From: Bordetella parapertussis
GTDB lineage: Bacteria > Pseudomonadota > Gammaproteobacteria > Burkholderiales > JACQAP01
DNA length: 64,000 bases
Direction: 5' to 3'
NCBI GenBank assembly: GCA_945900965.1
Contig: CAMDKM010000003.1
Coordinates: 73,715 to 137,714 of the forward strand
Shown here: piece by piece, positions 5,649 through 64,000 of the stretch
How positions within the stretch are numbered: position 1 is the first letter of the stretch
Layout: the number at the start of each line of letters is the position of its first letter
The notes under the pieces: generated by a model
What the model saw: the letters and a program-made list of their open reading frames with translations, nothing else
The model's database searches: none
What the model was told of the DNA's origin: nothing
Made by a program: the position numbers and the translations under genes

Positions 5649-6050
5649 ATGAGCGAGGGTTCCGGGCTTGGAGCCTTGTTCGTGAGCAGCTTTCTCGCCG
5701 CGACCCTGCTGCCCGGCGGTTCCGAGGTGGTCTTTCTTGGAGTGCTGATGAGCGGCACAAGCACCCTTTGGCCCGCGTTGGCAGTGGCCACTCTGGGTAA
5801 TACGTTAGGGGGGATGAGTTCTTACTTGATAGGGCGGCTCGTGCCTCTAAAAAAAGCGATTGCGGTGCGCCCCTTGGAATGGCTGCGGCACTGGGGTTCG
5901 CCGATTCTGCTGCTTTCGTGGGCGCCGCTGATTGGAGATCCTTTGTGTCTGGCAGCAGGGTGGTTGCGGCTCAATGCGGGCTGGGTTTTGTTGTTTATTG
6001 CGACGGGGAAATTGGGAAGGTATCTGGTGCTTGGGTTAGTTGCGCAATAA
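5649..6050 (+). CDS. yqaA: YqaA/DedA family membrane protein
   Basis: SFLAATLLPGGSE and GDPLCLAAGWLR motifs. Confidence 0.85.
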   Translation: MSEGSGLGALFVSSFLAATLLPGGSEVVFLGVLMSGTSTLWPALAVATLGNTLGGMSSYLIGRLVPLKKAIAVRPLEWLRHWGSPILLLSWAPLIGDPLCLAAGWLRLNAGWVLLFIATGKLGRYLVLGLVAQ

Positions 6051-42267: not shown

Positions 42268-42588
42268 TCAAAGGGGCCAGGCTCGAAGATTCCATTCCGT
42301 TGGCAATTCGCTTGCGTCCACGACATCCACCCGCATCGGCAAGTCGCTTTCGCTGAAAGCTTCGCGTAGCGCAAACGTCTGCTCCGGTTGCAGCGGTGGT
42401 CCCTCCAGCGCCAGATCGAGATCGGAATGCGGTTTGAGCCGCTGTCGATCTTCGGAGCTCAACACGACGCGTGAACCGAACACGAAAGCACGATGATGCG
42501 CTGCGTGAGTATTCAGAACCTGCGTCACTGTCGCCAACTGGTTCGGCGCCAATACCAGTTCTTGTCCCAGGCGGTTTTCTAGATTCAT
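42268..42588 (-). CDS. Minimal nucleotidyltransferase (MNT) antitoxin-like protein
   Basis: VFGSR...SDLDL; SDLPMRVDVVD. Confidence 0.8.
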   Translation of the reverse strand: MNLENRLGQELVLAPNQLATVTQVLNTHAAHHRAFVFGSRVVLSSEDRQRLKPHSDLDLALEGPPLQPEQTFALREAFSESDLPMRVDVVDASELPTEWNLRAWPL

Positions 42589-42983
42589 TTTGACGTAGCG
42601 CGCAAATTGGCAAGCAGGACTTCGGCATCCCGCAACAACGCAGGTAGCGCGTCGAACACCCGTGCGGCCTTGGCCGGATCGTAGACATGCGCGGTAATGT
42701 TGCGCAATTCGCGATAAGCGAACCAGGGCGTTTCGGCTGAGAGCAGTCCGCGCTCGATACCTGAACGGATCATGTCACGATAACCCAGCGCATCCACCTC
42801 GGATGGTGTATCGGACATGGCTTCGAGTTGGCGACGCAGCGATTTGACGCACAGTTCGTAAGTGTATTTAAAACGCTGAATGGAAGCATCGCGTACGAAC
42901 TCATCTCGCAGTCGAACCTTGGAAGCTTCCAGGGCCGCTGACAAAGATGCAATCGCTTTGGTTAATGAAGTGAAATCGAGCAT
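42585..42983 (-). CDS. HI0074-family HEPN (nucleotidyltransferase substrate-binding) protein
   Basis: RDASIQRFKYTYEL; RNITAHVY (RX4HXY); ATGA overlap with the MNT gene. Confidence 0.85.
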   Translation of the reverse strand: MLDFTSLTKAIASLSAALEASKVRLRDEFVRDASIQRFKYTYELCVKSLRRQLEAMSDTPSEVDALGYRDMIRSGIERGLLSAETPWFAYRELRNITAHVYDPAKAARVFDALPALLRDAEVLLANLRATSK

Positions 42984-49289: not shown

Positions 49290-50081
49290 TTAGTGTGCCA
49301 CACCCAAATACGCATCGATCACGGTCTGGTTGGCGCGGATCTCATCAGGGGTGCCTTCGCCGATCTTGCGGCCGTAGTCGAGCACGACGATGCGGTCGCA
49401 GAGGTCCATTACCACGCCCATATCGTGTTCGATCAACACAATCGTGGTGCCGAATTCTTCGTTGACGTCCAGCACGAAGCGGCACATGTCCTGTTTTTCC
49501 TCGACGTTCATGCCGGCCATGGGTTCATCAAGCAGCAGCAGGGTGGGCTCCGCCGCGAGTGCGCGGGCCAGTTCGACGCGTTTTTGCAGACCGTAAGGCA
49601 GGCGTCCGACCGGCGTCTTGCGAATATGCTCGATCTGCAGGAAATCGATGATGCGTTCGACTTTTTCGCGGTGTTCCAGTTCTTCGCGTTGCGCTCGACC
49701 GAAATACAGGCATTGGGCGAGGAATCCGGCATGCATTTTCAAAGTGCGGCCGGTCATGATGTTGTCGAGCACGCTCATGCCTTTGAACAGCGCGATGTTC
49801 TGAAACGTGCGCGCGATGCCTCGTGTTGCTGCTTCGTGCGGACGCATCTGCGCGTGGGTCACGCCACGGTAAGTGATGCGCCCCTGCCCCGGGTGGTAAA
49901 CACCGTTGATCACATTGAGCATGGAGCTCTTGCCGGCGCCGTTGGGTCCGATGATCGCGAAAATCTCCCGCTCGCGGACTTGAAAGCTCACCCCGGAGAG
50001 CGCTTTCACGCCGCCGAAGGCGAGCGAAATATCCTCAACTGCCAGAATCGGTTCGCCGAGTGTTCGCGTCATGCTCGTCAT
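49290..50081 (-). CDS. ABC ATP-binding protein (LivG-like)
   Basis: GPNGAGKS; LPYGLQKRVE; LDEPMAG. Confidence 0.9.
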   Translation of the reverse strand: MTSMTRTLGEPILAVEDISLAFGGVKALSGVSFQVREREIFAIIGPNGAGKSSMLNVINGVYHPGQGRITYRGVTHAQMRPHEAATRGIARTFQNIALFKGMSVLDNIMTGRTLKMHAGFLAQCLYFGRAQREELEHREKVERIIDFLQIEHIRKTPVGRLPYGLQKRVELARALAAEPTLLLLDEPMAGMNVEEKQDMCRFVLDVNEEFGTTIVLIEHDMGVVMDLCDRIVVLDYGRKIGEGTPDEIRANQTVIDAYLGVAH

Positions 50082-52042
50082 GCTGCCTTTGCCGCGGGAG
50101 TCTGAACCAACACGTCGCGGATTTCGATGTCGGCGCGCACTTTGCCGCGGCGGCCGTCCTCGAACTTAACCTCTGTTTCAATTACGCAGCGACTCTTGCC
50201 GCCATACAAGGCGTCCAGCAGCGCGACGTATTTTTCCGCTACAAATCCGCGCCGCACCTTGCGGGTGCGGGTGAGCTCGTCATCGTCGGCGTCGAGTTCC
50301 TTGTGCAGCACCAGAAAGCGCCTGATCTGTGAGCCGGTGAGCGCCGCGTCGGCCGCGAGATCGGCATTGACCTTTTCCACGCATTCCAGGATCAACCCAT
50401 AGACCTCGCTCTTGCTGGCGAGATCGACATAACCACTATAGGCCAGCCCACGTTTCTCCGCCCAGTTGCCCACCGCCTGCATGTCGAAGTTGATGAAAGC
50501 GCAGACCATGTCGCGGCCATCGCCGAAACACACTGCTTCTTTAATATAGGGGAAAAATTTGAGTTTGTTCTCCAGAAACTGCGGCGCGAACAACGTGCCG
50601 TTCTTTAATTTGCCGACATCCTTGGCGCGGTCGATGATGTGCAAGTCGCCATCGGCATCGATGAAGCCGGCGTCCCCGGTCATGAAGTAGCCGTCTGGCG
50701 TGATCGACTCGGCGCTGGCATCCGGGCGCTTATAGTAGCCATCAAGCAGGCCCGGAGTCTTGACCTGCACCTCGCCGTCGGCGGCGATGCGGATTTCCAC
50801 GCCGGCCTGGGGCTGGCCCACCACGTCCAATTTGGTTTGACCGCTCCTTTGCTTGCACACGTAGACGCCGGTCTCCGTCTGGCCATAGAGCTGTTTGAGA
50901 TTGATGCCGATCGAGCGGTAGAAGCGGTAGAGGTCCGGCCCGATCGCCGCGCCCCCCGTGTAGGCCACACGCACCCGGCTCAATCCGAGCACGTTCTTTA
51001 ACGGACCGTAGACCAGCAGTTCGCCGAGCGCATAAAGCAGCCGGTCACTCAGGCCGACGGGCCGGCCGTCAAGGATGTCCGGCCCGCAGCGCTTTGCGAC
51101 GTTCATGAAATAGTGGTACAGGCCGCGCTTGATTCGTCCCGCATCGTCGATGCGGATGGTGACCTGGGTGAGCAGGTTTTCGAGCACGCGCGGCGGGGCG
51201 AAGTAATAGGTTGGCCCGATCTCGCGCATATCGATCATCACTGTTTCGGACGACTCGGGGCAGTTCACCGTGAAGCCAGCGGCGAGCGCCTGCATATAGG
51301 AAAACAGATGATCGCCGACCCAGGCCATCGGCATGTAGGACACCACCTCCTCGTTCTCGGTGAAACCGTCGAACGCGATGTCGCCGCGGGCCACGGCGAG
51401 CAGGCCGCGGTGCGTATGACAGACGCCCTTGGGTTTGCTGGTGGTGCCGGAGGTGTACAGAATCACGCAAATGCCCTCTGTTTTTCCGAGCGCCACTTCG
51501 CGTGCTAAAAACTCCGGCTGCGCCGCATCCAGCGCGCGCCCCTTTTCGCGCAGGCCGTCACAGGAATAAATTTGCGGCTGGGAATAGTTGCGCATCCCGC
51601 GGCCTTCATCGTAAATGATGTACTTCAGGCGCGGGCAATGCGGCAGCAAATCCAGAAGCTTATCGACTTGCTCCTGGTCTTCGACGATGGCGTATTCGAT
51701 CTCGGCATTGTCGAGCACAAAGAGCATCTCCTGCGCCACCGAATCCTGATACAGCGGCACCGGCACGCCGCCAAGACTCTGCGCGGCGGCAAACGCCCAG
51801 TACAGCCGTGGCCGATTGTCCCCCACGATGGCGAGATTCATCCCGCGCTTGAATCCCAGCTCCGCCAGCCCGCAAGCCATCCAGCGCACCTCGTCGGCAT
51901 ACTGCCGCCAGGTCCAGCTCTGCCAGATGCCCAAGTCTTTTTCGCGCATAGCGATGTGTTCGCCACGCACACGGGCATGCTCCAGCAACTGCCGGGGAAA
52001 AGTATCGGCTGCCATCGGCAAGCCGGCACTGGATTGGGTCAA
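50078..52042 (-). CDS. Long-chain fatty acid-CoA ligase (AMP-binding)
   Basis: YTSGTTSKPKG; YGQTE; TGDAG; AGGAGG upstream of the TTG start. Confidence 0.88.
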   Translation of the reverse strand: MTQSSAGLPMAADTFPRQLLEHARVRGEHIAMREKDLGIWQSWTWRQYADEVRWMACGLAELGFKRGMNLAIVGDNRPRLYWAFAAAQSLGGVPVPLYQDSVAQEMLFVLDNAEIEYAIVEDQEQVDKLLDLLPHCPRLKYIIYDEGRGMRNYSQPQIYSCDGLREKGRALDAAQPEFLAREVALGKTEGICVILYTSGTTSKPKGVCHTHRGLLAVARGDIAFDGFTENEEVVSYMPMAWVGDHLFSYMQALAAGFTVNCPESSETVMIDMREIGPTYYFAPPRVLENLLTQVTIRIDDAGRIKRGLYHYFMNVAKRCGPDILDGRPVGLSDRLLYALGELLVYGPLKNVLGLSRVRVAYTGGAAIGPDLYRFYRSIGINLKQLYGQTETGVYVCKQRSGQTKLDVVGQPQAGVEIRIAADGEVQVKTPGLLDGYYKRPDASAESITPDGYFMTGDAGFIDADGDLHIIDRAKDVGKLKNGTLFAPQFLENKLKFFPYIKEAVCFGDGRDMVCAFINFDMQAVGNWAEKRGLAYSGYVDLASKSEVYGLILECVEKVNADLAADAALTGSQIRRFLVLHKELDADDDELTRTRKVRRGFVAEKYVALLDALYGGKSRCVIETEVKFEDGRRGKVRADIEIRDVLVQTPAAKAA

Positions 52043-52154
52043 ACGGAAACTCCTCCTAAATTCTTATTATTGGCGGACCATTAAATGGTCTTACCATCCG
52101 GTCGCGCAGCTGGAAGCTTACACCACGCAGGGGCCAAAAGACCATGTCGGCATG

Positions 52155-53516
52155 CTAATTTGGCTGGCCTTGCGTGATCGCGATGGTGAAGCCCTTCGGG
52201 ATCAGCCGGTGTTCGTAAGCCTGCCGCTCAAGCGTCTCCCGAAAGTCCGGATGTGCGATCGATATCATTGCCTTGGCACGCTGGGCGATGGACCTGCCCT
52301 TAAGATTGACGATGCCGTATTCGGTCACGACATACATCACGTCGGAGCGTGGCGTCGTGACAACATTGCCGGGTGTAAGGTCAAAGACAATCCGGCTTCT
52401 GGGCGCGCCGCGTTTGTCGTAGGTGGAAGACATGCAAATGAAGGACTTGCCACCCTTTGAAGCGTAACCGCCGCGCACAAACTGCAACTGGCCGCCGGTC
52501 CCGCTGATGTGACGATGGCCGTCGCTTTCCGATGCGACCTGGCCTTGTAAATCCATTTGCGTGGTGTTGTTGATCGTCACCGCCTTGTCGTTCTGCATGA
52601 TGATGTGCGGCAGGTTGGTGTAGCGCGTCGGGTAGGCGATGAAATCCGGATTGCGATCAATGGTGTCGTAAAGATATTTCGAGCCCAATGCGAAGCTATA
52701 CGCGATCTTGCCGGGGTCAAGCGTCTTGGCGGCCCCGGTGATGAAGCCAGCCTTGTAGAGATCGACGATGCCGTCGGTAAGCATCTCGGTATGAACACCG
52801 AGGTTGCGCACACCTGACTCCAGCAACAGCGAGCACACGGCGTTGGGCATGCCGCCGATGCCGATCTGAAGGCATGAACCGTCTTCGATTTCGGTCGCGA
52901 TGAGGCAAGCGACGGCGCGATCAACGTCGGTTATGGGTGACTTTGGCAGTTCGAAGACCGGGGCATTGTCACCTTCAATGACGTAATCGACTTCGCTCAT
53001 GTGAATCGCGTTGTCGATCCCGTAACAATAAGGCAGAGTCGGGCAGGTTTCTACAATCACCAACCGGGCGCGTTCGATAATCGCCCGATGCCAGAGTGTT
53101 GCGGCGCTGAGATTAAAATTGCCATCTGCGTCGACCGGGCAGGTCTTGATCACCACGATGTCCACCGGGTCGATGTTGCGCGCGTAGTAGTCGTCGACCT
53201 CGCCCAGATTCACCGGCATGTAGTCGCAGCGGCCCGCGTCGTGCATTTTCCGGTCGTAGCCGGAGAAATGCAGGCTCATCACGTAGAAGTGCTCTCCATT
53301 GGGATCTACCTCCAACACGGCGCGAGGGCGCGTGGTGATGGCGCTCCTGATTTTTACGTCGCGAAGCTCGGCGGCGCGTGCCGCCAAGGCATTGTCGAAA
53401 CTGTCCGGCTGCGCCAGCACGCCGCCGTAATCCAGCCACATGCCGGACTTGACCAAGCTTGCCGCGGCTTCAGCGCTAACGGTCCGAGCGGGCGATGCGG
53501 CCTGCCTCCTGGTCAT
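52155..53516 (-). CDS. Acetyl-CoA hydrolase/transferase family CoA-transferase (butyryl/4-hydroxybutyryl-CoA type)
   Basis: LQIGIGGMP; HTEM; SGTGGQLQF; VVTEYG. Confidence 0.88.
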   Translation of the reverse strand: MTRRQAASPARTVSAEAAASLVKSGMWLDYGGVLAQPDSFDNALAARAAELRDVKIRSAITTRPRAVLEVDPNGEHFYVMSLHFSGYDRKMHDAGRCDYMPVNLGEVDDYYARNIDPVDIVVIKTCPVDADGNFNLSAATLWHRAIIERARLVIVETCPTLPYCYGIDNAIHMSEVDYVIEGDNAPVFELPKSPITDVDRAVACLIATEIEDGSCLQIGIGGMPNAVCSLLLESGVRNLGVHTEMLTDGIVDLYKAGFITGAAKTLDPGKIAYSFALGSKYLYDTIDRNPDFIAYPTRYTNLPHIIMQNDKAVTINNTTQMDLQGQVASESDGHRHISGTGGQLQFVRGGYASKGGKSFICMSSTYDKRGAPRSRIVFDLTPGNVVTTPRSDVMYVVTEYGIVNLKGRSIAQRAKAMISIAHPDFRETLERQAYEHRLIPKGFTIAITQGQPN

Positions 53517-53585
53517 GATGGTGCTTTCTCCGTCACTTGATGTGTCACAGAAAACATCTTCGGGAAGTTGAGTTGACTCAGGCGA

Positions 53586-53957
53586 TCAACGACCGAGTTC
53601 GCTTGCGGGAGCCCACGGCGGCAGAGGTTCGCCACCGGTGTAATGGTTCTGCGCTGGCGTCTCCCGAAAGAGCACGTAGATATCGCGTGCATCGACATCC
53701 AGTTCAGCTTTCAACAATGCGGCAATGGCATCCACCAGCGCCTTCTTCCGATCGTGTCCCCGCCCGGGGCGCAAATCGACAGTGACCAGCGGCACGCCAT
53801 CACCGATCGCAGCGCAGACTTCGCGCACGGCAACATAGTCGTATTTGGTTTCTTTTGGCGCGAGGGTTGCGAGGACGGCTTGCTTAACACCCTCGCGGAT
53901 ACGACGTTTCTTGTCTAGCGGCGTTCCTTCTGGCACTTCGACTCGGATGACGGGCAT
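53586..53957 (-). CDS. Tautomerase superfamily protein (two fused beta-alpha-beta units, catalytic Pro1)
   Basis: M-P-V-I-R-V start after AAAGGA RBS; internal repeat PLVTVDLRPGR..RKKAL. Confidence 0.78.
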   Translation of the reverse strand: MPVIRVEVPEGTPLDKKRRIREGVKQAVLATLAPKETKYDYVAVREVCAAIGDGVPLVTVDLRPGRGHDRKKALVDAIAALLKAELDVDARDIYVLFRETPAQNHYTGGEPLPPWAPASELGR

Positions 53958-53984
53958 GGTTTTTCCTTTCAATGTCGGAATGTC

Positions 53985-54299
53985 TTACGCCCGGGGAGCC
54001 ATTCCGCGCACCAGCGTCAGGAACTCGAGCTTGGTTCCCGCGCGACGATGTGCCGACAGGGCTTGATAGTCCGGATCGGCGTACCAGCGCCTCGCATGGT
54101 CTTCCGACGGGAATTTGAAAATGATGACGCGTCCCTCACGTGCTGCTGAACCTTCGAAGGTGTGAGTCTGGTCGTCGAAGGTGACCAACTCTCCGCCGTG
54201 GCGCTTGAGGAGCGGGAAAAACCCTTTCTCGTATTTGCGGTACTCATCCGCATCTCGAACAATCAGGTTCGCGAGCATGTAGGCAGGCGCGTCGGACAT
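53985..54299 (-). CDS. DUF1330 family protein
   Basis: PAYML; FPS...RRWYADPDYQ..HRR. Confidence 0.8.
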   Translation of the reverse strand: MSDAPAYMLANLIVRDADEYRKYEKGFFPLLKRHGGELVTFDDQTHTFEGSAAREGRVIIFKFPSEDHARRWYADPDYQALSAHRRAGTKLEFLTLVRGMAPRA

Positions 54300-54310
54300 G
54301 GTGTTCTCCA

Positions 54311-55195
54311 TCAGGGCAGCGCAGCAATCCAATCGGCCAGGGCATGCCCAATTTCATCGGGAGAATCTTCCTGGAGGAAATGCAAGCCTTCCACCGTGAC
54401 TTCTTTCTGATTGGGCCAGGTTCGACAGAATTCGCGCTGAGCCCCGACCAATATCGAGCCAGGCTCCGCATTGATGAACAATTTCGGGACGGCGCATTGT
54501 CGCAACCAATCGGCGTACTGCTGCACCAATGCGACCATGTGCGCAGGCTCGCCCGCGATGGGGATCTGCCGTGGCCAGTTCAACGTTATCTGGCGGTTGT
54601 CTTTCTCGACGAAGGGCGCGCGGTACTCGGCCATCTCTTCGTCGGTCAGCTTGCGCATGATCGAACTCGGTAACACGCCCTCGATGAACATGTTGCGGTT
54701 CAAGATCAGGTCCTCGCCCTTGGCGGAGCGGAATCCCTGAAATATGCCGCGCGCCTTTTCCGGCCAATCGTTCCAGGACGGCAAGGGCATGACGATGCCC
54801 TCCATATAGGCGAGGCCACGAACCGCTACGGGGTGGTTGTGAGCCCAGTGAAAAGCAAGCGCACTGCCCCAGTCGTGGAGAACGAAAATAACTTCCGAAG
54901 TCGCACCGATTTCCGTCAAGAGGCCATTCAGATAAGCATAGGTCACCTCAAAACTGTAACGACCGGGCCCCTCGCTGGCTGGGAGTTTTTCCGAGTCGCC
55001 ATGGCCAATCAGATCGGGAACAATGACTTTGCCGCTGCCTGCCAGATGCGGGACGATATTGCGCCACAAGTAACTCGATGTGGGATTGCCGTGCAGCAAA
55101 ACGATCGGGCGACCCGTACCCACTTCCGCATAGGCGAGACGACGTCCCTTGACCTTGCAGAACTTCTTGGGGAGTGGCGCTGCGGAGAATGCCAT
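54311..55195 (-). CDS. dhaA: Haloalkane dehalogenase (DhaA/LinB-type, HLD-II)
   Basis: LHGNPTSSYLWRN; HDWG nucleophile; YMEGI; G.HFLQEDSP. Confidence 0.88.
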   Translation of the reverse strand: MAFSAAPLPKKFCKVKGRRLAYAEVGTGRPIVLLHGNPTSSYLWRNIVPHLAGSGKVIVPDLIGHGDSEKLPASEGPGRYSFEVTYAYLNGLLTEIGATSEVIFVLHDWGSALAFHWAHNHPVAVRGLAYMEGIVMPLPSWNDWPEKARGIFQGFRSAKGEDLILNRNMFIEGVLPSSIMRKLTDEEMAEYRAPFVEKDNRQITLNWPRQIPIAGEPAHMVALVQQYADWLRQCAVPKLFINAEPGSILVGAQREFCRTWPNQKEVTVEGLHFLQEDSPDEIGHALADWIAALP

Positions 55196-55767
55196 CAGGC
55201 CGCGCTCCCCATCAGGCGAAACGCCGTGTCGATATTGGCAAGCTGCCGATCCCGTGCAACCCTGCGGCGGCTGGAAACGCGGATGCCTTCATTGAACAGC
55301 ATCAGGAAGCTGGCAAATTCGGCGGCACGCTTCGGCGCAAGTCCGGCATCTCGCAGGCATTTCTCGAACTCCGCCTGCATTTCAACCAATAGACCGCTGG
55401 CCCGCGCGCTGAGATCGTCATCGACTCCGGCCAATTCCAACACCGTATTGACCATCATGCATCCCCATGCGGTCTTCTGGCCGCGCTGCCCGGTTGCCGT
55501 GTACTCGAAGAAATTCCGCAGAGCATCCAGGGGACCCATGTTTTCGCGCGCCTTCAGCAGGATGTCCTTGGTACGCTTGCCAAATAGCTCCAGACATTCC
55601 ACATACAGGCTGCGTTTGTCGACGAAGGTTGCGTAAAAACTGCTGCGGCCGATGTCCATGGTCTCCAACAGGTCGGCGAGCGAAGCCGCCTGGTAACCCT
55701 TGTTCCAAAACAGCACAAGGGCTTTGTCCAGCGCCGCCGATCGATCGAACTCCAGGATTCTTGCCAT
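55195..55767 (-). CDS. TetR/AcrR family transcriptional regulator
   Basis: MAR..EFD; HTH LFWNKGY..SLADL..I.RSSFY; GCMMVN. Confidence 0.9.
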   Translation of the reverse strand: MARILEFDRSAALDKALVLFWNKGYQAASLADLLETMDIGRSSFYATFVDKRSLYVECLELFGKRTKDILLKARENMGPLDALRNFFEYTATGQRGQKTAWGCMMVNTVLELAGVDDDLSARASGLLVEMQAEFEKCLRDAGLAPKRAAEFASFLMLFNEGIRVSSRRRVARDRQLANIDTAFRLMGSAA

Positions 55768-55772
55768 GGCCC

Positions 55773-55802
55773 AATACTGTACCGATCGGTTCAGAATGTC
55801 AA
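55773..55802 (-). promoter_or_regulatory. Sigma70-type promoter with overlapping TetR-like operator
   Basis: TTGACA-N17-CAGTAT-N6-ATG; spacer contains palindrome CTG(A/T)ACCGATCGGT(A/T)CAG. Confidence 0.7.
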
Positions 55803-55858
55803 GCGTGACAATTGGCCTCGCGCTCGACCTTGGGGAAACACTGAATAAGTCCGGAGAT

Positions 55859-55927
55859 GTCATTCCCACGGAGACGAGAATCAAGGATTTTCAAAGAAAA
55901 CTGGTTCCCCGCCTTTGCGGGAAAGAC
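55859..55927. repeat. Degenerate GTCATTCCC..GGGAATGAC (dRS3/RPE-like) REP pair
   Basis: GTCATTCCCACGGAGACGAGAATCA ... TGGTTCCCCGCCTTTGCGGGAAAGAC. Confidence 0.6.
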
Positions 55928-55934
55928 ACCTATC

Positions 55935-56867
55935 TCAGTGTTTCCCCGAACTTTCAGGGCCCAACCAACGGCGAAGTTTTACGCGTGCACCGTTGGTCGC
56001 CGGGCCCAGTGCCGCGCCCATCTTCGCGCCGGCCGGCGTTGATAGCGTAAACCGGGCGGCGGCGAAATCCAGCATCGCGCCGTTCATTCCGGGCCAGCGC
56101 GCATGTCCACCGTCATATTCACAAAACAAGGTTCGCGTGCCCGGCGCGCAGCCAACATACTCAATACAGCCGTTGTTCGCAGCGATGGTCTTACTTTCGC
56201 AGCGGTTGCACTGTCCCCACCAATGCGCCGCATCGCGGCCATACTGCGGCGGCGGGAACAATTTGTCCTTTGTGCCGTGAATGACCATCACGGAGCGCGG
56301 TGCGGGGCAGGCGTAGGCGCGCAGGTCTTCCGCGCGCAATCCGGCCGCGCTGGCGACGATGCCCGTGACCGGGAGACTGGACTTGCCCAGAAACACCAGC
56401 GCGGAAGCGGCGGTGCCGCCGTCGGAGTGTCCCGCCAGCCAGACGCGCCGCGGATCGACGCACCAGTTTTTGGCGACGGTGGCCGGTACTTCGCCGAGCA
56501 CGTCGAATGTCTTCAGCTTGAGCGGGCGGTGGTCGGGATAAGCGACGATGAATCCGCGTGCCGTGGCATCGCGCGTCAAGCCGAGATATTTTTCGGAAGC
56601 GTGGCGATTCTGCCCTGCCGCCGGATAAACCACCAGCAAGGGATGGGCAAGGCTGGCGTCGTAGTTGGCCGGGGTGCGAACACTGATGCGCAATTCACCT
56701 GGCGTGGCGATTTCATTACTCGCGCCACTCGGGACTGCTGCCGCGCACTGCGTTGGCAGGGCGAGTGCCGCGTAGTCGGCTTGGCCGAGGTCGACCTTAG
56801 CGGGGCCGCAGGCGCATAGCATTGCCAGCAGTGCCAGCGCCGCACACCCGGCGTTACGGCTTGTCAC
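55935..56867 (-). CDS. PHB-depolymerase/LpqC-family esterase, predicted lipoprotein
   Basis: Lipobox LCAC; GFIVAYPD; GHSDG; IHGTKD; GGHARW. Confidence 0.75.
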   Translation of the reverse strand: MTSRNAGCAALALLAMLCACGPAKVDLGQADYAALALPTQCAAAVPSGASNEIATPGELRISVRTPANYDASLAHPLLVVYPAAGQNRHASEKYLGLTRDATARGFIVAYPDHRPLKLKTFDVLGEVPATVAKNWCVDPRRVWLAGHSDGGTAASALVFLGKSSLPVTGIVASAAGLRAEDLRAYACPAPRSVMVIHGTKDKLFPPPQYGRDAAHWWGQCNRCESKTIAANNGCIEYVGCAPGTRTLFCEYDGGHARWPGMNGAMLDFAAARFTLSTPAGAKMGAALGPATNGARVKLRRWLGPESSGKH

Positions 56868-56998
56868 TTTGCAGGGCGTTTCTTCTGGCGCAGCGGTTTG
56901 TAGCTGGCCGTCTGAGGCGAGGCGCCGGGCATTGTTACTTCGATATCCGCCATTGTTTCATCACAATTCTCCTCGTGGCTCAAACATGCTTCGCGCGA

Positions 56999-58957
56999 TC
57001 AATGCACATGATCATCGGGCGGCGGTCTGACTTCCGGCTCCGCCGCCAGCATCTTGATATGCGCACTCAGGCGGTCGATATCACGCCAGGCATCGCCCTC
57101 GCCGGGTGACCAGCGTGCGCGTACATAGCCAAAGCGATCCACCAGCAGCTCCATGTGCGCGGGCACCGGAGCGCGGTCCTGCGGATCGGCGTCAGTAAGT
57201 GTTCGGCGCAGCAGGCTGTAAGCGCTCACGGTTTCGGCGCCGCCTTCGAGCGCCACGCCGTACGGCGCAGGCAGCCGGGCGGCATATTTTCCGTCAACCG
57301 GAATGGCAATGATTCTCGCGCCTGCTTCATTCAGCCGCGCGTTGTTGTCCGTCAGTTGACGCATCCGTGCATCTGACATGGGTGCGGTAAAAAACACCAG
57401 TAACACCACGCTTTGTTGCCGGTAATCCTTGAGTGCCGCGGAAACGCCGTGCTGATCGGTGTAGTTGAAATCGATCGCACCCAGCCAAGGCTTGAGCGGC
57501 ACAGGGCGCTCACCAAGGATACGCGCCTGATAGCCCGCCGAAAGCGTGCGCAGGAAATTGATCAAGTCCCAGCGATCATCCCCCGATAGAACGGTGGCGA
57601 AGCCGGGCATGGTGTTCTTGCCGAATGTGAGCCACCAGAACATATCGCCCGCCGTGTGCAGCGCGGTGTGGGGCTCGGTGAGATTGGCGGCAGGAATCAT
57701 TGCGCTGGCGGCTGGGCCGTCGCCATGGCCGCTGCTGCCATGGCAATCGGTGCAATGGCGTTGAAACAGTTGCGCGCCCGCCGTGACGGAAATGGTTTGA
57801 TACAGCACGCTCGGCCTGCGATAAGTGTCGGGATAAGCCTCAACGGAAATTGCGGCCAGCGCAGCGCTCGCGGCACAGACGAACAACATGCCACCCAGCA
57901 CCACCGCTGCCGACATTCGGCGCTGAAGCAGAAAGCGCCAGAGCGCGAAGACCAAGCCCAAGGCGGCGGCAACAGCGCAGGCCAGCGCGATGGGAATCCA
58001 TTGCGTGTCACGGTTGGCATCAATGGAAAAGCGAAACGGCAGTAACCAGTCGATGGCATCGTGCGCCGCGGGAATGGTGCGCGCGATTTGGGCGGCGAGC
58101 AGCACGATGATCAGCGCGATCAGCCATTCGACCAGAATCCAGCGCGCGAGTTGTTTTGCCAGCGTGGCATCCCCGGCAAAACGCGGCAGTAGTTTCCAGC
58201 GCAACTGCGCGGCGAGCAACAAAACGCCTGCGAGCAGCAGAATTTTTATCAGCAGCGTCCATCCGTAAGCGGTGCCGAATAAGGCCGGAAAAGTCTGAAT
58301 GTGCACGACGCCGAGCCAGACGCCGCTGGCGACAATGAGCAGCATGAGCGGCAGCGCTAGGTTTGAAAATCTGGCGAACGATGCCAGCGCCAGCCTGCGT
58401 GCGTCGTCATCGCCGCGCGCCGCCAGCAGCGCCAGCGCACTCATCACCGGCAGTGCGCCCAGCCAAAAACCCGCTGCGAGCAGATGTGCGATATGCGCGG
58501 CTACTGCGGGCCACAACGGCACGGCGGTGGCCGAGTGTCCGGACCATGGCAGCGCTGCCAGCGCGACCCCCGCCAGCGCGAGAACGACGATGACCGGCAG
58601 CGCTGACTGGGCGCGCGCCACCAGCATCACTGCGAGCAGCACGCAAGCGGCGAGCAGCAAGGCTTCGCGCAACATCCAGACCGCGCCGAAGCGGCTTTCG
58701 AACAGCAGCCGGGAAATGGTTGCATCCAAAGGCAGTCCGGTCTGCGGCAGAGTTGCAATTTGCGCGGCGAACACCAGCACTCCGGAAAGCAGCGCGATCG
58801 CACCGCTGGCAAGAGCGAAAACCAGGACACGCCGCCACAACGCAGGCGAAGTCCGCGCTCGCGGAGCGCAGAAAATCAGAAAACCCAGACTCCCAGTCAG
58901 GATCAGACCGCCGCCCTGATGCAACCCGCGTGCAATCAGGAAAATCGCTTCGTTCAT
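56999..58957 (-). CDS. copD: CopD copper-transport domain fused to cytochrome c and a thioredoxin-like domain
   Basis: CopD motifs SGH, HLLAAGFWLG, RFS, YG..LLIK; CTDCH heme; C-terminal DFNYTDQHG..VVLLVFF; PPPDDHVH tail. Confidence 0.82.
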   Translation of the reverse strand: MNEAIFLIARGLHQGGGLILTGSLGFLIFCAPRARTSPALWRRVLVFALASGAIALLSGVLVFAAQIATLPQTGLPLDATISRLLFESRFGAVWMLREALLLAACVLLAVMLVARAQSALPVIVVLALAGVALAALPWSGHSATAVPLWPAVAAHIAHLLAAGFWLGALPVMSALALLAARGDDDARRLALASFARFSNLALPLMLLIVASGVWLGVVHIQTFPALFGTAYGWTLLIKILLLAGVLLLAAQLRWKLLPRFAGDATLAKQLARWILVEWLIALIIVLLAAQIARTIPAAHDAIDWLLPFRFSIDANRDTQWIPIALACAVAAALGLVFALWRFLLQRRMSAAVVLGGMLFVCAASAALAAISVEAYPDTYRRPSVLYQTISVTAGAQLFQRHCTDCHGSSGHGDGPAASAMIPAANLTEPHTALHTAGDMFWWLTFGKNTMPGFATVLSGDDRWDLINFLRTLSAGYQARILGERPVPLKPWLGAIDFNYTDQHGVSAALKDYRQQSVVLLVFFTAPMSDARMRQLTDNNARLNEAGARIIAIPVDGKYAARLPAPYGVALEGGAETVSAYSLLRRTLTDADPQDRAPVPAHMELLVDRFGYVRARWSPGEGDAWRDIDRLSAHIKMLAAEPEVRPPPDDHVH

Positions 58958-59334
58958 CGGCCTGCGGCGGGGGGCTCCCGGATTTCAAATTGGAAGCTGG
59001 ATTTGACGGTGTGGCCGTCAATGGAAAGGACTTGGAATTGCACGGTGTAAACCCCATTGCCCAAGCGGGGCAGCGCCAGCTCCAGCAGCTTTGCGTCTTG
59101 CGCGGCAACCACGGCTTTAATTTCGGTCACCGGTTTGCCGGTAGAGTCCAGCACGGTGGCGATGCTGAATGCGGGTTCGAGTGCCTCGTTAAACCATAGC
59201 CGCAACTGTTGGGGCGCCTGACTCATTACAGCGCGGCGCGCGGGCTCGGACTTTAGCAGCTTGGCGTGTGCCCAGGTTGTCGCCGGTTGCGCAATCAGAA
59301 CGCACAGCATCAGGGACGCGAAAAAACGCTGCAT
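58954..59334 (-). CDS. copC: Periplasmic copper chaperone CopC
   Basis: Signal ending TWA then HAKLLKSEP (His1); SIDGH. Confidence 0.9.
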   Translation of the reverse strand: MQRFFASLMLCVLIAQPATTWAHAKLLKSEPARRAVMSQAPQQLRLWFNEALEPAFSIATVLDSTGKPVTEIKAVVAAQDAKLLELALPRLGNGVYTVQFQVLSIDGHTVKSSFQFEIREPPAAGR

Positions 59335-59347
59335 CGGCGCGCGCCCT

Positions 59348-59902
59348 TCAACGGGTAAGTTTCGGGCGAAGCCGGGTGGTATAGAAGTACAGGCCGGCAC
59401 CAAAGGCCAGCGCGATGGCAATCCAGCCGTACATTGTCCAGCTCGCCCCGCTCCGGGCAACGGAAAACGGGAATCGGGCAACCAGCTTTTGTTTGTCGTG
59501 CACCGTTACCAAACCGATAAATTTGCCGGGCTCCGAGAAAGTGTGTTCAAAGTGGACCGAGCCCGTCGGATAAATACTGGCCGGCAGGTGAAACACCGTG
59601 ATGCCATCGAGATTGTCTTCCGTACCCGTATCGCGAATGATCCGAACCTCCGCCGATAGCGAGCGCAGTTCCTGATCTACATAGTCGAGCACTACGATGG
59701 TCTTGCCGGTACTCGGAATGTCTTCGCAAAATTCCTTTTCCGCGCTGCTCTCCGGTTGGTAGCCGACGAAGTGAATATTGTAAGGGCCGACTCGCAGGCG
59801 GCAGATGTCTTTATCCATGGACAATCCGCCGTGTCCGATGGCCAATTGCGGCAGCATCAAGACAACTGCCAGAAGAAACAGTGCGCGTGTCGAGGATGTC
59901 AT
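59348..59902 (-). CDS. pmoD: PmoD/AmoD family copper protein
   Basis: Signal then HGG; C-x9-H-FVGYQP; EFCEDIP; C-terminal TM; directly after xmoB. Confidence 0.82.
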   Translation of the reverse strand: MTSSTRALFLLAVVLMLPQLAIGHGGLSMDKDICRLRVGPYNIHFVGYQPESSAEKEFCEDIPSTGKTIVVLDYVDQELRSLSAEVRIIRDTGTEDNLDGITVFHLPASIYPTGSVHFEHTFSEPGKFIGLVTVHDKQKLVARFPFSVARSGASWTMYGWIAIALAFGAGLYFYTTRLRPKLTR

Positions 59903-59952
59903 CTTGCGAGGGAAGCACGACCGCCGGGGGCGGCCGTGCCGGATGTCGGGTT

Positions 59953-61209
59953 TCAGATGGTTTTCTTGAATACCGGCAGGACCGGCCCTGCAACGCTGGT
60001 GGTATACCGGGTTCCCTTGTCATCGAAGAAGAAAATCAGGGCGCCCACCCGGCTATCAACGTTGGACAAAAAGCCGACCAAGCGCTCCAGCTCCCAGGCT
60101 GCGTCGGTGGCGTCCAGCTTGACCACCCGGGTTTCGCCTGGGGCAAGCGGCGTATCTTCCGCGACCACCAGCCCGCTGGTCGGCAGCAGATCCTTGGGAT
60201 AAGCCGGGTCTACCGCAGCCACCGCGGCCGGAACCGCACCGTTGACGAAGCGCAGACTCGCTGTCAGGAACTCCCCAACCCGGATCGGACGCGTGGCATT
60301 GTTGCTGACTTCAATATTCATGCGCAGACTGCGCCCGGGGACATCGTATTCCGCCTTCTTGAATTTTACGCCGACGAGCTTTGGTGTTTCCGGCAAGGGC
60401 GGCGTATGGAGCGAACCAGCTTGCAGTGGAACCAGCCGAGGATAGGCGGCGGTGACACTCTTATAGCCGACAATGACAACCACCAGGATCAGGACCAGAA
60501 GTCCTGCCGCGACTTTGTCGTCCATTTTTGTGATCAACAAATCGTCCAGTCCTTTTTGCGCCGCCATCCAGCGCGGAACCAGCAGCGGCCGGCGCAGCCA
60601 CCAGAAGATCCAGGCGAGCGCGATCACGATGTATCCCGATTGCCACATCTGCGCCCGAGCCACGCCGTAGTTCTGCGTGTCTGCAATCTGAGTGCCGTCG
60701 ATCGTGGTGACGGGGTGCCGGAAATCCGCCGCGTTGCCGCTGACCTGCACCCAACTGCCGGGACCAACGATCGGTCCAGCCCCGCTCACATTGATCATTG
60801 GATGAAAGTGCCAGCGGCCTGGTATGCGCCCCTTCATCACCATTTTGAAGGTGTAATCACGTCCGATTTCCAGGTTTTTCAGGGACTGCATGGCCGGAAC
60901 ATCGTTGATATACGATTCCACCCGGGTGAGTACTGCTCCCGGCGAGGCGTTGGACATGAATACCAGGTTGGGTTTTTTTACGGCGTCCGGCCAATCCGCC
61001 ATAAGGTGAAATTTGCCCGACACAGTAACCGTGTCGTTGACGTTAATGTCCTGAGCCGACCACTTGACGTCATACCATTGAATGGTGCGTGTGCGAATGT
61101 AGGGTTCCGTTGCCCGCTCGCCGTGCGCCCATGCGGGCGGCGGAGCGACGGCCGAAACAAGCGTCAAAATAGCCAGTGCGCCGAGAACGATTTTTCCAAT
61201 GGGGTTCAT
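59953..61209 (-). CDS. pmoB: Copper membrane monooxygenase subunit B (PmoB/AmoB family)
   Basis: AHGERATEPYIRTRTIQWYD; GRWHFHP; GPIVGPG; YDVPGR; GEFLTASLRF. Confidence 0.95.
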   Translation of the reverse strand: MNPIGKIVLGALAILTLVSAVAPPPAWAHGERATEPYIRTRTIQWYDVKWSAQDINVNDTVTVSGKFHLMADWPDAVKKPNLVFMSNASPGAVLTRVESYINDVPAMQSLKNLEIGRDYTFKMVMKGRIPGRWHFHPMINVSGAGPIVGPGSWVQVSGNAADFRHPVTTIDGTQIADTQNYGVARAQMWQSGYIVIALAWIFWWLRRPLLVPRWMAAQKGLDDLLITKMDDKVAAGLLVLILVVVIVGYKSVTAAYPRLVPLQAGSLHTPPLPETPKLVGVKFKKAEYDVPGRSLRMNIEVSNNATRPIRVGEFLTASLRFVNGAVPAAVAAVDPAYPKDLLPTSGLVVAEDTPLAPGETRVVKLDATDAAWELERLVGFLSNVDSRVGALIFFFDDKGTRYTTSVAGPVLPVFKKTI

Positions 61210-62015
61210 TATTGCGCCCCCTTGTTGGCATAACCCAGTCCCATCGCCGCGCGGAAGCGCTTGCCTGTGGGAATGTAGGTCGGGATGCACAGTTTCGAGC
61301 CGATCCACCAGAAAATCATGTAGGCGAAAATACAAACGAAGCCGGAAAAGGCCGTGGATACCCACACAGCCGAATCCTCAAAGGTGCGCAAGGTGCCCCG
61401 TTCTATCATGCGAATGTATTCAGGCGTGGCAGAGCGCGGATAGGTGTACCCGATCAGATCGGCCAGCGAAACCATCTGGCCCATGTGTTCCACCGGCAGG
61501 AAATAAGGCGCCAGGTAGACCCAGTTGCTGGGGAAAAATAGCGCCGCGTAGAGCAGACCCCCGAACACGCCTGTCAGTACCCAGCTGCGGGTGATGGATA
61601 AAATTGCGTCCAGCGCAATAGCGCTCAAGAGGCAGGTGGATGGAACAACCAAGGCAAGCGGGAAATACGCCAAGGCCTCCCAACCGTGAAAACGTACAAT
61701 CCAGGTGCCGATCAGAAGCAAACCAACGCTGGCCGTGGCGCCGATGGGCAGGCGGAAGAGATTCCAAAAGACCCCCTGAAATGCGGCTGCCATCATCATT
61801 GTCACGATGGGCGTAACCAGCACCCAGAATTGCCGGTCTTTCCAGTCGATGAAAAAATCCCAATCCCCTGCCAGCAGGATAAAGTGGATCTGGGTGACCG
61901 AAATAATCAGAAAAGCGGCAACCACCACGACCATCCAGTCGAAGAGCCTCGACCATTTGGCCACTTGTGGCGATAATCCGGCGGAATCCACGATCGCGCG
62001 ATCATTCGCTGTCAT
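61209..62015 (-). CDS. pmoA: Copper membrane monooxygenase subunit A (PmoA/AmoA family)
   Basis: HFILLAGDWDFFIDWKDRQFW; FPSNW; SLADLIG; TPEYIRMIERGTLRTF. Confidence 0.95.
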   Translation of the reverse strand: MTANDRAIVDSAGLSPQVAKWSRLFDWMVVVVAAFLIISVTQIHFILLAGDWDFFIDWKDRQFWVLVTPIVTMMMAAAFQGVFWNLFRLPIGATASVGLLLIGTWIVRFHGWEALAYFPLALVVPSTCLLSAIALDAILSITRSWVLTGVFGGLLYAALFFPSNWVYLAPYFLPVEHMGQMVSLADLIGYTYPRSATPEYIRMIERGTLRTFEDSAVWVSTAFSGFVCIFAYMIFWWIGSKLCIPTYIPTGKRFRAAMGLGYANKGAQ

Positions 62016-62106
62016 GCTCTAGTCTCCCTGAATATAGTTTTTGTTCGCCCTGTTTTGACCCCAGAGCACTGCCCGGTATCAACCGGGCGACGGCCTGAAA
62101 ACTAAA

Positions 62107-62140
62107 GAGCCCGTCCACTAACGACTAGTTGGACGGGCTC
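62107..62140 (-). terminator. Stem-loop/terminator between xmoC and xmoA
   Basis: GAGCCCGTCCA-N12-TGGACGGGCTC followed by TTTAGTTTT on the minus strand. Confidence 0.7.
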
Positions 62141-62164
62141 CCAGTTTCCGAATATCTCCTGCGC

Positions 62165-62956
62165 CTAACGTGCCGCGGCGTTCTGTGTGGCACTTAATTC
62201 CTTGAACAGTTCTGCCATGCGCATGACAAGTTGCAAGAGCAGACCGCCCAGTCCGATGCCGGTCCAGCCCAGCACAACAAAACCCCAATGCAGGGGGTGC
62301 GTGAATATCTCCTCGGTCAGCCAGAATGCATGGCCCCACTCGTTGAATCCGAGATTAGGCAGAATCAAACCCGGTCCCAGAACAACCATGATGAGCGGCA
62401 CGGAAAAGTTGTTCGCGAATTTCGGCAGACGGGTCATCGCATAAAGCATGCTGGCCACGCCAAACAGGATGTAAGCGGGGATGGCGAAATAAAACAGCAC
62501 GACGTGGCTGGGCGTAAATACCGTGTCGCGCACCACCGTCTGATGCCAGGTGGCGTCCGCCTCGCCGTTAAAGCTGGCGATGAAAATAAAGGCGAAGGTA
62601 TATAACAGCAACCAGCCGACCAGATTGAAATACCGCTTCAGCTCGGTCTCGGCATCGAGTTTTTCCAGATGCCTGTCACGCGTCATCCACAAGTAAACCC
62701 AGGTGATTATTGACGCCGCGCCGATCAACACGATTTCCACCTTCAGCAAGGTCATCCAGTATTTCTGAAAATCCGCCGAGGTAGAGTCCAGCCCGAATTC
62801 AAAGGCGTACATGCCCTGGTAGGCGCGCAGCCCCATATAGATGGTAAACATCACGCCCCAGACAACGGCCAGTGGCACGAGCTTCACAATTTTGCGCGAG
62901 GCTGGTGCCGCGACGGTCCCCGCTGGCCTCACTCCCGATTCCATGACTGCGGACAT
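62165..62956 (-). CDS. pmoC: Copper membrane monooxygenase subunit C (PmoC/AmoC family)
   Basis: GLDS..FQKYWM; EADATWHQTVVRDTVFTPSH; PNLGFNEWGHAFWLTEEIFTHPLHWGFV; AGGAGG RBS. Confidence 0.95.
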   Translation of the reverse strand: MSAVMESGVRPAGTVAAPASRKIVKLVPLAVVWGVMFTIYMGLRAYQGMYAFEFGLDSTSADFQKYWMTLLKVEIVLIGAASIITWVYLWMTRDRHLEKLDAETELKRYFNLVGWLLLYTFAFIFIASFNGEADATWHQTVVRDTVFTPSHVVLFYFAIPAYILFGVASMLYAMTRLPKFANNFSVPLIMVVLGPGLILPNLGFNEWGHAFWLTEEIFTHPLHWGFVVLGWTGIGLGGLLLQLVMRMAELFKELSATQNAAAR

Positions 62957-63020
62957 AATTCCTCCTGTCGTAACATGTGGAACGCCGATATTGCGCCGCT
63001 TTCGGCAGCGCTTACCTGCC

Positions 63021-63065
63021 ATTCTAGTCCTTTATGTTGAAACAAAGTTGTCGTTTCAACGACAA
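63021..63065 (-). promoter_or_regulatory. Putative xmoC promoter: -10 TAGAAT plus perfect palindrome TTGTCGTT-TC-AACGACAA
   Basis: Palindrome at 63048-63065 lies about 42 bp upstream of the start site implied by TAGAAT (63021-63026, minus). Confidence 0.65.
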
Positions 63066-63075
63066 TTGGGCCCAT

Positions 63076-63750
63076 ATGAGAAATCTTGCGGAATTCTTGC
63101 GCGCCGCAACATGGACAAGCCAGCTCACGCCGGAACAGTTGCATCGTGTTATGGCTGAAACTCGGGGGCATACCTATGCCGCGGGGCAGACGGTCTGCCG
63201 CAGCGGCGGTCCGGTGGACTCCTGGATCGGCGTGATCGATGGACTGGTAAAGTTGCACGCCATTGCCAAGGAAGGCCGATCCGTAACCTACACTGGCATT
63301 CCGTCCGGAGGCTGGTTTGGAGAGGGCTCACTTCTTAAGGAAGAGCCTCGGCGCTATGACGTTCTGGCCTTGCGAGCCTCGCGCATCGCTCATGTGCCGC
63401 GCGCCACATTCGAGTGGCTGCTTGATAACAGCATACCCTTCAATCGCTTCGTCATGCGCCAGATCAACGAACGCCTCGGGCAGTTCATCGCGCTCGTGGG
63501 CTACGATCGTATGCACGACACCGATGCTCGCGTGGCGCTATGCCTCGGGGAATTGTTCCATCCGGTACTTCATCCCGACATTGGCCCGAAATTGCAGATT
63601 TCCCAGGAAGAGATCGGGCTGTTGACGGGCATATCGCGGCAGCGCGCCAATCAGGCTTTGCAAAAACTGCAACAAGAAGGTTTGCTGGCACTGGAGTATG
63701 GCGGCGTCCGGGTGATGAATGTCAACCGCTTGCGACGCTACGGTGCCTGA
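63076..63750 (+). CDS. Crp/Fnr family transcriptional regulator
   Basis: cNMP-binding fold WFGEGSLL..RRYDV; HTH ISQEEIGLLTGISRQRANQAL. Confidence 0.9.
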   Translation: MRNLAEFLRAATWTSQLTPEQLHRVMAETRGHTYAAGQTVCRSGGPVDSWIGVIDGLVKLHAIAKEGRSVTYTGIPSGGWFGEGSLLKEEPRRYDVLALRASRIAHVPRATFEWLLDNSIPFNRFVMRQINERLGQFIALVGYDRMHDTDARVALCLGELFHPVLHPDIGPKLQISQEEIGLLTGISRQRANQALQKLQQEGLLALEYGGVRVMNVNRLRRYGA

Positions 63751-63845
63751 GCCGCGTGCAGGCGGCGGGCTTGTCACCAATCAGTGGGCTGCTTATGCCC
63801 CGCCGGTCGTGGGTTCGGCAATTTTGTGGCGAATCCCGGCCGGTT

Positions 63846-64000
63846 CTAGTGATCGGATTTTCCGCAGTAAATCTCCAGGCAATTGTCTTCCGGATCGCGG
63901 ATCTGGAAGGCATTGAATTCCTCGCCCTGTTTGACCGGCATGCCGAACTTGAGGGCCCATTCGTTGAGCGACTTGTTGCCGGACACGCGAAAACCCACGT
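63846..64000 (-). CDS. VOC/glyoxalase family protein, C-terminal part (runs off the window)
   Basis: Manual translation: VGFRVSGNKSLNEWALKFGMPVKQGEEFNAFQIRDPEDNCLEIYCGKSDH*. Confidence 0.6.
   Translation of the reverse strand, partial: VGFRVSGNKSLNEWALKFGMPVKQGEEFNAFQIRDPEDNCLEIYCGKSDH

Follow-up and report, generated by a model that had tools for sequence, protein, structure and literature searches.

A copper membrane monooxygenase cluster of the proteobacterial Xmo clade, inserted behind a probable host operator in an uncultured Burkholderiales lake bacterium

What does a copper membrane monooxygenase (CuMMO) oxidise in a bacterium that resembles neither a nitrifier nor a methanotroph, and how is it wired into such a host? 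The question is raised by a gene cluster in a 64,000-nucleotide stretch of contig CAMDKM010000003.1 (assembly GCA_945900965.1, deposited as Bordetella parapertussis; positions 73,715 to 137,714), hereafter the window, whose own numbering is used below. An earlier interpretation made from the letters alone (the sequence-only reading) had described a divergent xmoCAB system between 55935 and 63750. The CuMMO cluster was confirmed in this study as xmoC, xmoA and xmoB, followed as proposed by pmoD, copC, a copD fusion and an esterase. Every one of these minus-strand genes is intact and in frame. The far end of the proposed span (63034–63750) is instead a plus-strand CRP-family host gene. By its sequence the cluster is a new member of a published proteobacterial 'Xmo' clade, and its enzyme is judged, with moderate confidence, likely to hydroxylate short-chain alkanes (C2–C4) to alcohols. 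The features of the cluster are as follows.

62165–62956, minus strand: xmoC, 263 amino acids; CuC ligands D134/H138/H151, CuD ligands N205/H209/H223, D144, and V146 at the position of HmoC A151
62107–62140, minus strand: strong hairpin with a T-rich tail in the xmoC/xmoA gap (-39.8 kcal/mol, z -4.84, 0/200 shuffles)
61209–62015, minus strand: xmoA, 268 amino acids; Pfam match
59953–61209, minus strand: xmoB, 418 amino acids; signal peptide; CuB ligands H29/H134/H136; start overlaps the xmoA stop
59348–59902, minus strand: pmoD/amoD-like gene, 184 amino acids; homologues beside xmo/amo/pmo genes
58954–59334, minus strand: copC, periplasmic copper-binding protein (PF04234, E 5e-22)
56999–58957, minus strand: CopD-cytochrome c-redoxin fusion, 652 amino acids; CopD, cytochrome c and AhpC/redoxin domains by Pfam
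55935–56867, minus strand: esterase, a predicted lipoprotein (Cys20) and alpha/beta-hydrolase; triad S148/D201/H255; annotated as a PHB (polyhydroxybutyrate) depolymerase

The three homologous subunits A, B and C of the CuMMO superfamily were all recovered, with Pfam scores far over the cut-offs (XmoC, PF04896, E 2e-83; XmoA, PF02461, 1e-78; XmoB, PF04744, 1e-135). With ligands assigned from the described CuMMO copper sites (PMC11725843), the CuB, CuC and CuD sets are complete, the sequence-only reading having already recognised copper ligands in the intact C-A-B genes; the six XmoC ligands, together with D144, are invariant in 56/56 aligned XmoC sequences and the XmoB histidines in 11/11. Each cluster gene is single-copy in the host genome. 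The pmoD-like protein has no Pfam or NCBIfam match, and the gene is named for its position and its 34–75% identity to genes beside amo, pmo and xmo operons, whilst the CopD fusion is 37–42% identical to proteins in comammox Nitrospira amo loci. The hairpin, a probable partial terminator, is missing from the terminator-scan list; a similar hairpin is present in two of the loci compared here, L001 and L002 (L and G numbers denote loci and genomes). In locus L205 of genome G395 (4051–5964), two apparent tandem open reading frames of xmoC size precede xmoA, the first of which was confirmed as AmoC family.

Phylogenetic analysis of concatenated C-A-B sequences bore out the claim that the enzyme lies outside ammonia monooxygenase (AMO), particulate methane monooxygenase (pMMO) and Pxm. 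The tree comprises 45 rows, the window and 44 of 84 extracted loci after thinning of near-duplicates; verrucomicrobial, NC10, Haliea and archaeal enzymes are not among its named rows, and the comparison was made without TUSC, RA21 and other amplicon clusters (PMC4678205). The window falls in a three-row sub-lineage within a 19-row group, which includes Rhodoferax, Acidovorax, Bradyrhizobium and Nevskiaceae, and this in turn within a 26-row clade, all with 100/100 support. The 26-row clade is non-methanotroph and non-nitrifier, and is separate from AMO, from pMMO with Cycloclasticus, from the one Pxm and from actinobacterial hydrocarbon monooxygenase (HMO). No nesting within pMMO, the AMO of ammonia-oxidising bacteria (AOB) or comammox, Pxm or actinobacterial HMO was seen in this tree, in which genome G055 is labelled AOB on the strength of three high-scoring copies, which is an inference. 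The window's monophyletic grouping with the named members and an xmoCABD order in a host without hydroxylamine oxidoreductase (HAO) both agree with placement in the proteobacterial Xmo clade. In the XmoA tree Solimonas aquatica joins the same clade (33 rows, SH-aLRT 100). XmoA shares 94% and 87% identity with two records from uncultured betaproteobacteria. Its identity is 60–68% with Methylibium, Rhodoferax, Acidovorax, Bradyrhizobium, Extensimonas and Nevskiaceae, 59% with Solimonas aquatica and 38–48% with AMO and pMMO; the alignments likewise agree that the signature stretches depart from the latter two.

Family models give a mixed picture. Against the NCBIfam 'AmoB/AmoC' cut-offs, XmoB is well above (536 against 336) and XmoC just above (319.9 against 319), and XmoA falls below that for AmoA (272 against 290); of the pMMO families, TIGR03079 is passed, and TIGR03080 (247 < 318) and TIGR03078 (271 < 281) are missed. 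As the B and C subunits are automatically annotated as ammonia monooxygenase, this clade, which is widespread among soil and freshwater heterotrophs, can inflate counts of nitrifiers and methanotrophs. A search of 72,556 plasmids gave five matches, all <47% identical, and no member of the clade.

The novelty that the sequence-only reading saw in the clade does not hold, since members have already been reported. The Solimonas and Bradyrhizobium enzymes are listed as function-unknown by Khadka et al. 2018 (PMC6215863) and those of Rhodoferax and Polaromonas likewise by Awala et al. (PMC8630023), whilst the Nevskia nzgw585 cluster is mentioned by Mosley et al. (PMC9562985). With these proteobacterial XmoCAB(D) systems the window shares the C-A-B-D order, a heterotrophic host and XmoA identities of 59–68%, but it differs in forming its own sub-lineage (XmoA 82–94% among six close clusters), in having valine rather than alanine at the XmoC position discussed below, and in its insertion at a crp/ligase site behind a probable host operator. 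The closest systems in working are the actinobacterial HmoCAB enzymes of Mycolicibacterium chubuense NBB4 and Rhodococcus ZPP, which have the full ligand set, a hydrophobic side chain where HmoC has A151, leucine at position 154 and an acid-activating enzyme nearby; identity, however, is 29–41%, the clade is separate, and the 6 kb around the NBB4 cluster, unlike the window, show no pmoD or copCD annotation. The pMMO and AMO systems of Methylococcales, Methylocystis, betaproteobacterial AOB and comammox Nitrospira have the same ligands and gene order, and the comammox loci also share pmoD, copC and the copD fusion, but these enzymes are 36–48% identical over full-length matches and fall in separate clades, and in the window's host no HAO and no clear C1 assimilation module were found. 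Pxm differs in its gene order (A-B-C, not C-A-B), with 44–50% identity to the one Pxm compared. A Porticoccaceae cycloalkane CuMMO was set aside as a model, being by description outside all other proteobacterial CuMMOs (10.1101/2022.11.07.515388).

A clue to the substrate comes from XmoC. Position 146, which corresponds to A151 of HmoC, is valine in 3/3 members of the window's sub-lineage, alanine in 15/17 of its sister group and in 2/2 HMOs, aspartate in 17/17 pMMOs and serine in 12/12 AMOs, and position 154 is leucine in the window, as in HMO, and glutamate in 17/17 pMMOs. The aspartate and glutamate of pMMO are therefore replaced by V and L here, and the non-polar character of HMO position 151 is kept, with valine in place of alanine. 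Positions 131 and 133 are small in 20/20 clade members (Gly; Ala, Gly or Ser) and are Thr and Gln in pMMO. These residues suggest an open, non-polar substrate pocket. The HmoC mutation A151D lowered the oxidation of butane more than that of ethane, according to a review (PMC13058606), so that Asp at this site favours smaller substrates, and the Val/Ala/Asp/Ser series at this one position offers a direct handle on CuMMO specificity.

The host is a heterotroph-type, uncultured Burkholderiales lake bacterium (genome of 3.88 Mb, 96.8% complete, 0.06% contamination), in keeping with the apparently heterotrophic lifestyle first read from the window. No HAO candidate, that is, an open reading frame with 3–23 haem motifs, occurs among the 28,328 in the genome, and no form I/II RuBisCO was found there, the sole match being a RuBisCO-like protein beside a sugar-acid kinase that lies below all carboxylase cut-offs. 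MCH, hexulose-phosphate synthase, Ccr and P450 were also not found in the genome. A search for soluble di-iron monooxygenases gave zero matches, but as its control likewise gave zero it is uninformative, and the test for a serine cycle is weak, one succinyl-CoA-synthetase-like beta subunit being returned by a motif test for malate thiokinase. The window indeed holds no hao or methanol dehydrogenase gene; elsewhere in the genome, on another contig, lies XoxF (best match a lanthanide XoxF, E 6e-286), accompanied by genes for a cytochrome and a MoxJ-type binding protein. The host thus has a methanol dehydrogenase, as a pMMO-bearing host would, but one that is common in the genus: XoxF occurs in 24/37 genomes and xmo in 2/37, so XoxF predates xmo and does not track it. 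The presence of XoxF alone does not overturn the sequence-only reading.

Eight pyrroloquinoline quinone (PQQ) dehydrogenases, XoxF included, are encoded in the genome (contigs C1, C2, C6, C12, C15, C25 and C67), none of them on the window's contig, and seven of the eight are distant from characterised types. The genome also has seven full-length aldehyde dehydrogenases, isocitrate lyase, the methylcitrate genes prpBCD, FolD and three Baeyer-Villiger monooxygenases, and an IcmF gene lies just past the window end. From this gene content the host would be able to oxidise methanol, with no clear route for its assimilation, and C2–C4 acids are predicted to be assimilable. A pair of very large multihaem cytochromes encoded next to each other on contig C26 (30789–35268; 26 and 24 haem motifs) may form an extracellular electron transfer system, and a secreted monohaem protein at 40569–41180 of the window has a weak cytochrome P460-family match (24 bits against a cut-off of 27).

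How the cluster came to sit in this genome is suggested by its upstream flank and by relatives that lack it. The features that bound it are these.

63048–63065: palindrome of 18 bp that probably serves the neighbouring CRP-family regulator as its operator; already part of the ancestral host locus
63034–63750, plus strand: CRP/FNR-family regulator, likely start 63076; host gene on the left flank of the insertion
50078–52042, minus strand: acyl-CoA ligase, first gene of the host acid-uptake operon, on the right flank of the insertion

Both xmoA and xmoB are present in only 2/37 genomes of the genus. In the xmo-negative genome G030 the same crp gene and the operon of the acyl-CoA ligase and ABC transporter face each other with nothing between, and crp faces the ligase in 24/29 other Burkholderiales loci with this regulator (the 30 best of 45 regulator matches were surveyed). 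The palindrome lies upstream of crp in 22/29 loci, allowing up to two mismatches, against 1/30 control stretches; in the window and in L002 it is now upstream of xmoC. It follows that an insertion of some 11 kb (roughly 52050–63040) has separated the operator from the ligase. The acid-uptake and CoA-ligase genes, which the sequence-only reading had used as substrate clues, are therefore part of the ancestral host locus. In L002 the insert ends after the esterase. We infer that the CRP-family regulator now controls xmoCAB through a captured host promoter, an arrangement that illustrates how a CuMMO may be wired into a new host and that, together with the CuMMO-tracking esterase described below, adds to what is known of the clade. 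The operator was not found upstream of xmoC in 24/25 other clade loci checked, and the minus strand yielded no sigma-70 promoter. A genome-wide scan returned 1 exact and 11 one-mismatch operator sites where 0.19 and 7.3 were expected, so no regulon can be claimed, and the site that precedes xoxF, with a single mismatch, is no more than chance would give. The GC content at third codon positions of the cluster genes is within 1 standard deviation of the genome mean, a composition without foreign signal, so the insertion cannot be very recent unless its donor was similar. The apparently unnamed regulator and its operator, facing the acyl-CoA ligase/ABC transporter operon, are conserved across Burkholderiales (window and L218–L246).

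Besides the cassette, the inserted block carries the following.

55832–55947: miniature inverted-repeat element, 116 bp with 13-bp perfect ends, which supplies the esterase stop codon
53586–55884, minus strand: tetR, haloalkane dehalogenase (54311–55195), DUF1330 and tautomerase genes; passengers, not conserved xmo partners
52155–53516, minus strand: short-chain acyl-CoA transferase (acetyl-CoA hydrolase/transferase family), which co-travels with xmo in L004 and L010

The mobile element has 27 further matches in the genome, and a 76% identical esterase of another species (P0272) ends in an identical 34-residue tail beside the same element. The tetR-to-tautomerase genes lie beyond this element, away from the xmo cassette, and none of the other xmo loci fetched has a homologue of them. 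The dehalogenase scores 385 bits against an NCBIfam cut-off of 241, is found in five relatives without xmo and is absent from G024, the second xmo-positive genome, and is incidental to the xmo system; its value as a substrate clue, proposed from the letters, is lost with these observations. The CoA-transferase is 55% identical to genes within Rhodoferax and Vitreoscilla xmo clusters and is found in 1/37 genomes of the genus, that of the host itself. An aldehyde dehydrogenase gene follows xmo in L004, L007 and L010. Separately, pqqE directly follows the xmo cluster in two unrelated hosts (L001, 3893–4954; L004, 12960–13748), and in Nevskiaceae (L012–L021) xmoCABD lies amid acyl-CoA dehydrogenase, CoA-transferase III, MmgE/PrpD and citrate-lyase-like genes rather than copCD.

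The esterase raises a question that reaches beyond this locus. The residue after its lipidated Cys suggests sorting to the outer membrane. In the 27 of 120 listed homologues that were aligned, the Ser-Asp-His triad is invariant (27/27), as are six cysteines, and the predicted structure (pLDDT 85.7) is closest to feruloyl esterase, PHB depolymerase and acetyl xylan esterase folds, at 15–22% identity. The protein thus has the Ser-Asp-His alpha/beta-hydrolase fold, and it fails the NCBIfam model for extracellular PHB depolymerase (NF050058, 49.5 < 150 bits). It is present at 13/28 clade loci and in 24/36 chosen CuMMO-bearing genomes, namely 8/10 comammox (one broken), 5/6 Methylococcales, 7/7 Nevskiaceae-type (one partial), 2/2 Hyphomicrobiales, 2/2 others, 0/4 Methylocystaceae and 0/5 AOB. 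Among 401 Burkholderiales genomes a full-length copy occurs in exactly four, the same four that have a non-nitrifier CuMMO, each time within 8 kb of xmoA, and it is missing from the five AOB-type genomes of that order; the CuMMO-negative controls behind these counts are from Burkholderiales only, and related genomes are not independent. One xmo-negative Burkholderiales genome (G056) has half an esterase gene (L206, 10509–10820), the C-terminal half, after a formamidase-family gene that in congeneric G395 (L205) precedes a full xmo cluster, which looks like a deletion of the latter. Of 80 metagenome loci with the esterase, 41 also carry pmoD, copCD or a gene for a CuMMO subunit, in many cases amoC of comammox type on its own; 39/80 (13/27 among loci of at least 8 kb) have no CuMMO-linked gene, so the link does not always run through adjacent genes.

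Palomo et al. described a comammox-only 'phaZ', similar to Methylococcaceae genes, present without PHB synthesis genes and of unclear role (10.1101/138586), which probably belongs to the same family, sharing with it both annotation and occurrence in comammox and Methylococcales. They read it as a possible relic of PHB metabolism, whereas the distribution here tracks CuMMO genes and offers a testable alternative for this comammox-specific gene. No literature linking the esterase to CuMMOs was found in a search that left most subscription journals outside. The esterase is a candidate general CuMMO accessory and, being found in comammox and Methylococcales as well, a poor substrate clue; as it is not universal, it is not essential to all CuMMOs. 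More tentatively, it is possible that this 'PHB depolymerase' is an unrecognised accessory required for building, repairing or remodelling the membrane that surrounds CuMMOs, comammox AMO and gammaproteobacterial pMMO among them.

Taken together, the predicted pocket and the aldehyde dehydrogenase and CoA-transferase neighbours favour a route from alkane through alcohol, aldehyde and acid to acyl-CoA. XmoCAB would assemble as a membrane trimer loaded with copper by PmoD, CopC and the CopD fusion, O2 would be activated at CuC/CuD, and a C2–C4 alkane would be hydroxylated to the alcohol. PQQ or NAD dehydrogenases and then aldehyde dehydrogenases could complete the oxidation, and the acid would be activated by the co-inserted CoA-transferase, acetyl-CoA entering the glyoxylate shunt and propionyl-CoA the methylcitrate cycle, whilst branched C4–C5 acyl-CoA may go via IcmF. 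Transcription would probably start at a promoter that the insertion took over from the host, with the CRP-family regulator in control, and the esterase would probably be an accessory of the enzyme rather than a step of the pathway. Of the short alkane, alkene, ether or haloalkane proposed by the sequence-only reading, a small hydrocarbon is still the likeliest substrate; the neighbouring genes that it had used as clues have not lasted. As a compact cassette with its own copper-handling genes, the cluster is a practical candidate for heterologous expression.

Several observations weigh against alkane hydroxylation. The window cluster itself contains no alcohol or aldehyde dehydrogenase gene, and the host has XoxF, glutathione-dependent formaldehyde dehydrogenase and the formate-tetrahydrofolate ligase FtfL. 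Evidence for ethane and propane use by Rhodoferax and Polaromonas was reportedly given by Rochman et al. in 2020, including propane-induced genes, for lineages that may differ from that of the window. The A151 evidence comes from one mutant of a protein 34% identical to XmoC, and bears on alanine and aspartate rather than valine. No measured substrate for any clade member was found in the literature searched, and one CuMMO paralogue acts on acetone, not alkanes (PMC8630023). Short contigs with almost the same sequence occur in RNA runs X5 and X6 (in X5 they include 258 nt of xmoB), and these are not proof of transcription.

Other substrates can be read from the same genes. Were the enzyme to act on a small cyclic or oxygen-containing compound, for instance a ketone (such as acetone), a cyclic ether or a cycloalkane, the esterase could open a lactone or ester and the CoA-transferase activate a hydroxy-acid; the latter's family includes 4-hydroxybutyrate CoA-transferase. 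A 4-hydroxybutyrate dehydrogenase gene lies ~1 kb upstream of xmoC in L003, the genome has its three Baeyer-Villiger monooxygenases, the esterase recurs at clade loci, and PMO3 sets a precedent for a ketone-specific CuMMO (PMC8630023). This reading is nevertheless unlikely, as the comammox and Methylococcales that share the esterase are non-users of such substrates, the Baeyer-Villiger monooxygenases are unlinked to xmo, and the dehydrogenase of L003 is an isolated example, encoded on the opposite strand. A pairing of an alkene or haloalkane monooxygenase with the neighbouring dehalogenase is very improbable: ethylene-assimilating Haliea do have CuMMOs (PMC6215863) and the dehalogenase is within the same inserted block, but its absence from other xmo loci and from G024, its presence in xmo-negative relatives and the mobile element between it and the cassette all speak against it.

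Methane would be oxidised, under a further alternative, with energy from XoxF and glutathione-dependent formaldehyde oxidation and carbon from organic acids. The XoxF gene with its cytochrome and MoxJ-type protein, the formaldehyde dehydrogenase and FtfL/FolD would suit this, the DNA occurs in lake-water metagenomes, and CuMMOs are promiscuous (PMC6215863). It would represent a methane sink outside recognised methanotroph groups, in which a newly inserted Xmo is paired with a resident XoxF. The genus-wide excess of XoxF over xmo makes it quite improbable, however, together with the position of the enzyme outside pMMO, its lack of the two acidic residues kept in 17/17 pMMOs, and the finding of no ribulose monophosphate, Calvin or tetrahydromethanopterin marker, with one succinyl-CoA-synthetase-like beta subunit in the weak motif test. 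Ammonia oxidation, as heterotrophic nitrification or co-oxidation, would fit the AmoB and AmoC scores, the resemblance of PmoD, CopC and CopD to comammox counterparts and the weak P460-like match, but with an enzyme outside the AMO clade, an XmoA under the AmoA cut-off, no HAO and no autotrophic pathway it is highly improbable. Hydroxylation of C2–C4 alkanes is therefore the interpretation that we retain.

The window is also represented in environmental reads. Contigs from lake-water run X4 tile 50000–64000 nearly without differences, at an even depth of 5.9–9.2 and with one 50-base gap, and the DNA may have come from this very run. High depth over xmoC was rejected as a signal of expression, the reads coming from amoC/pmoC of other organisms. 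Elsewhere in the window, at 42268–42983, a nucleotidyltransferase and substrate-binding-subunit pair, seen from the translations alone, resembles a toxin-antitoxin system.

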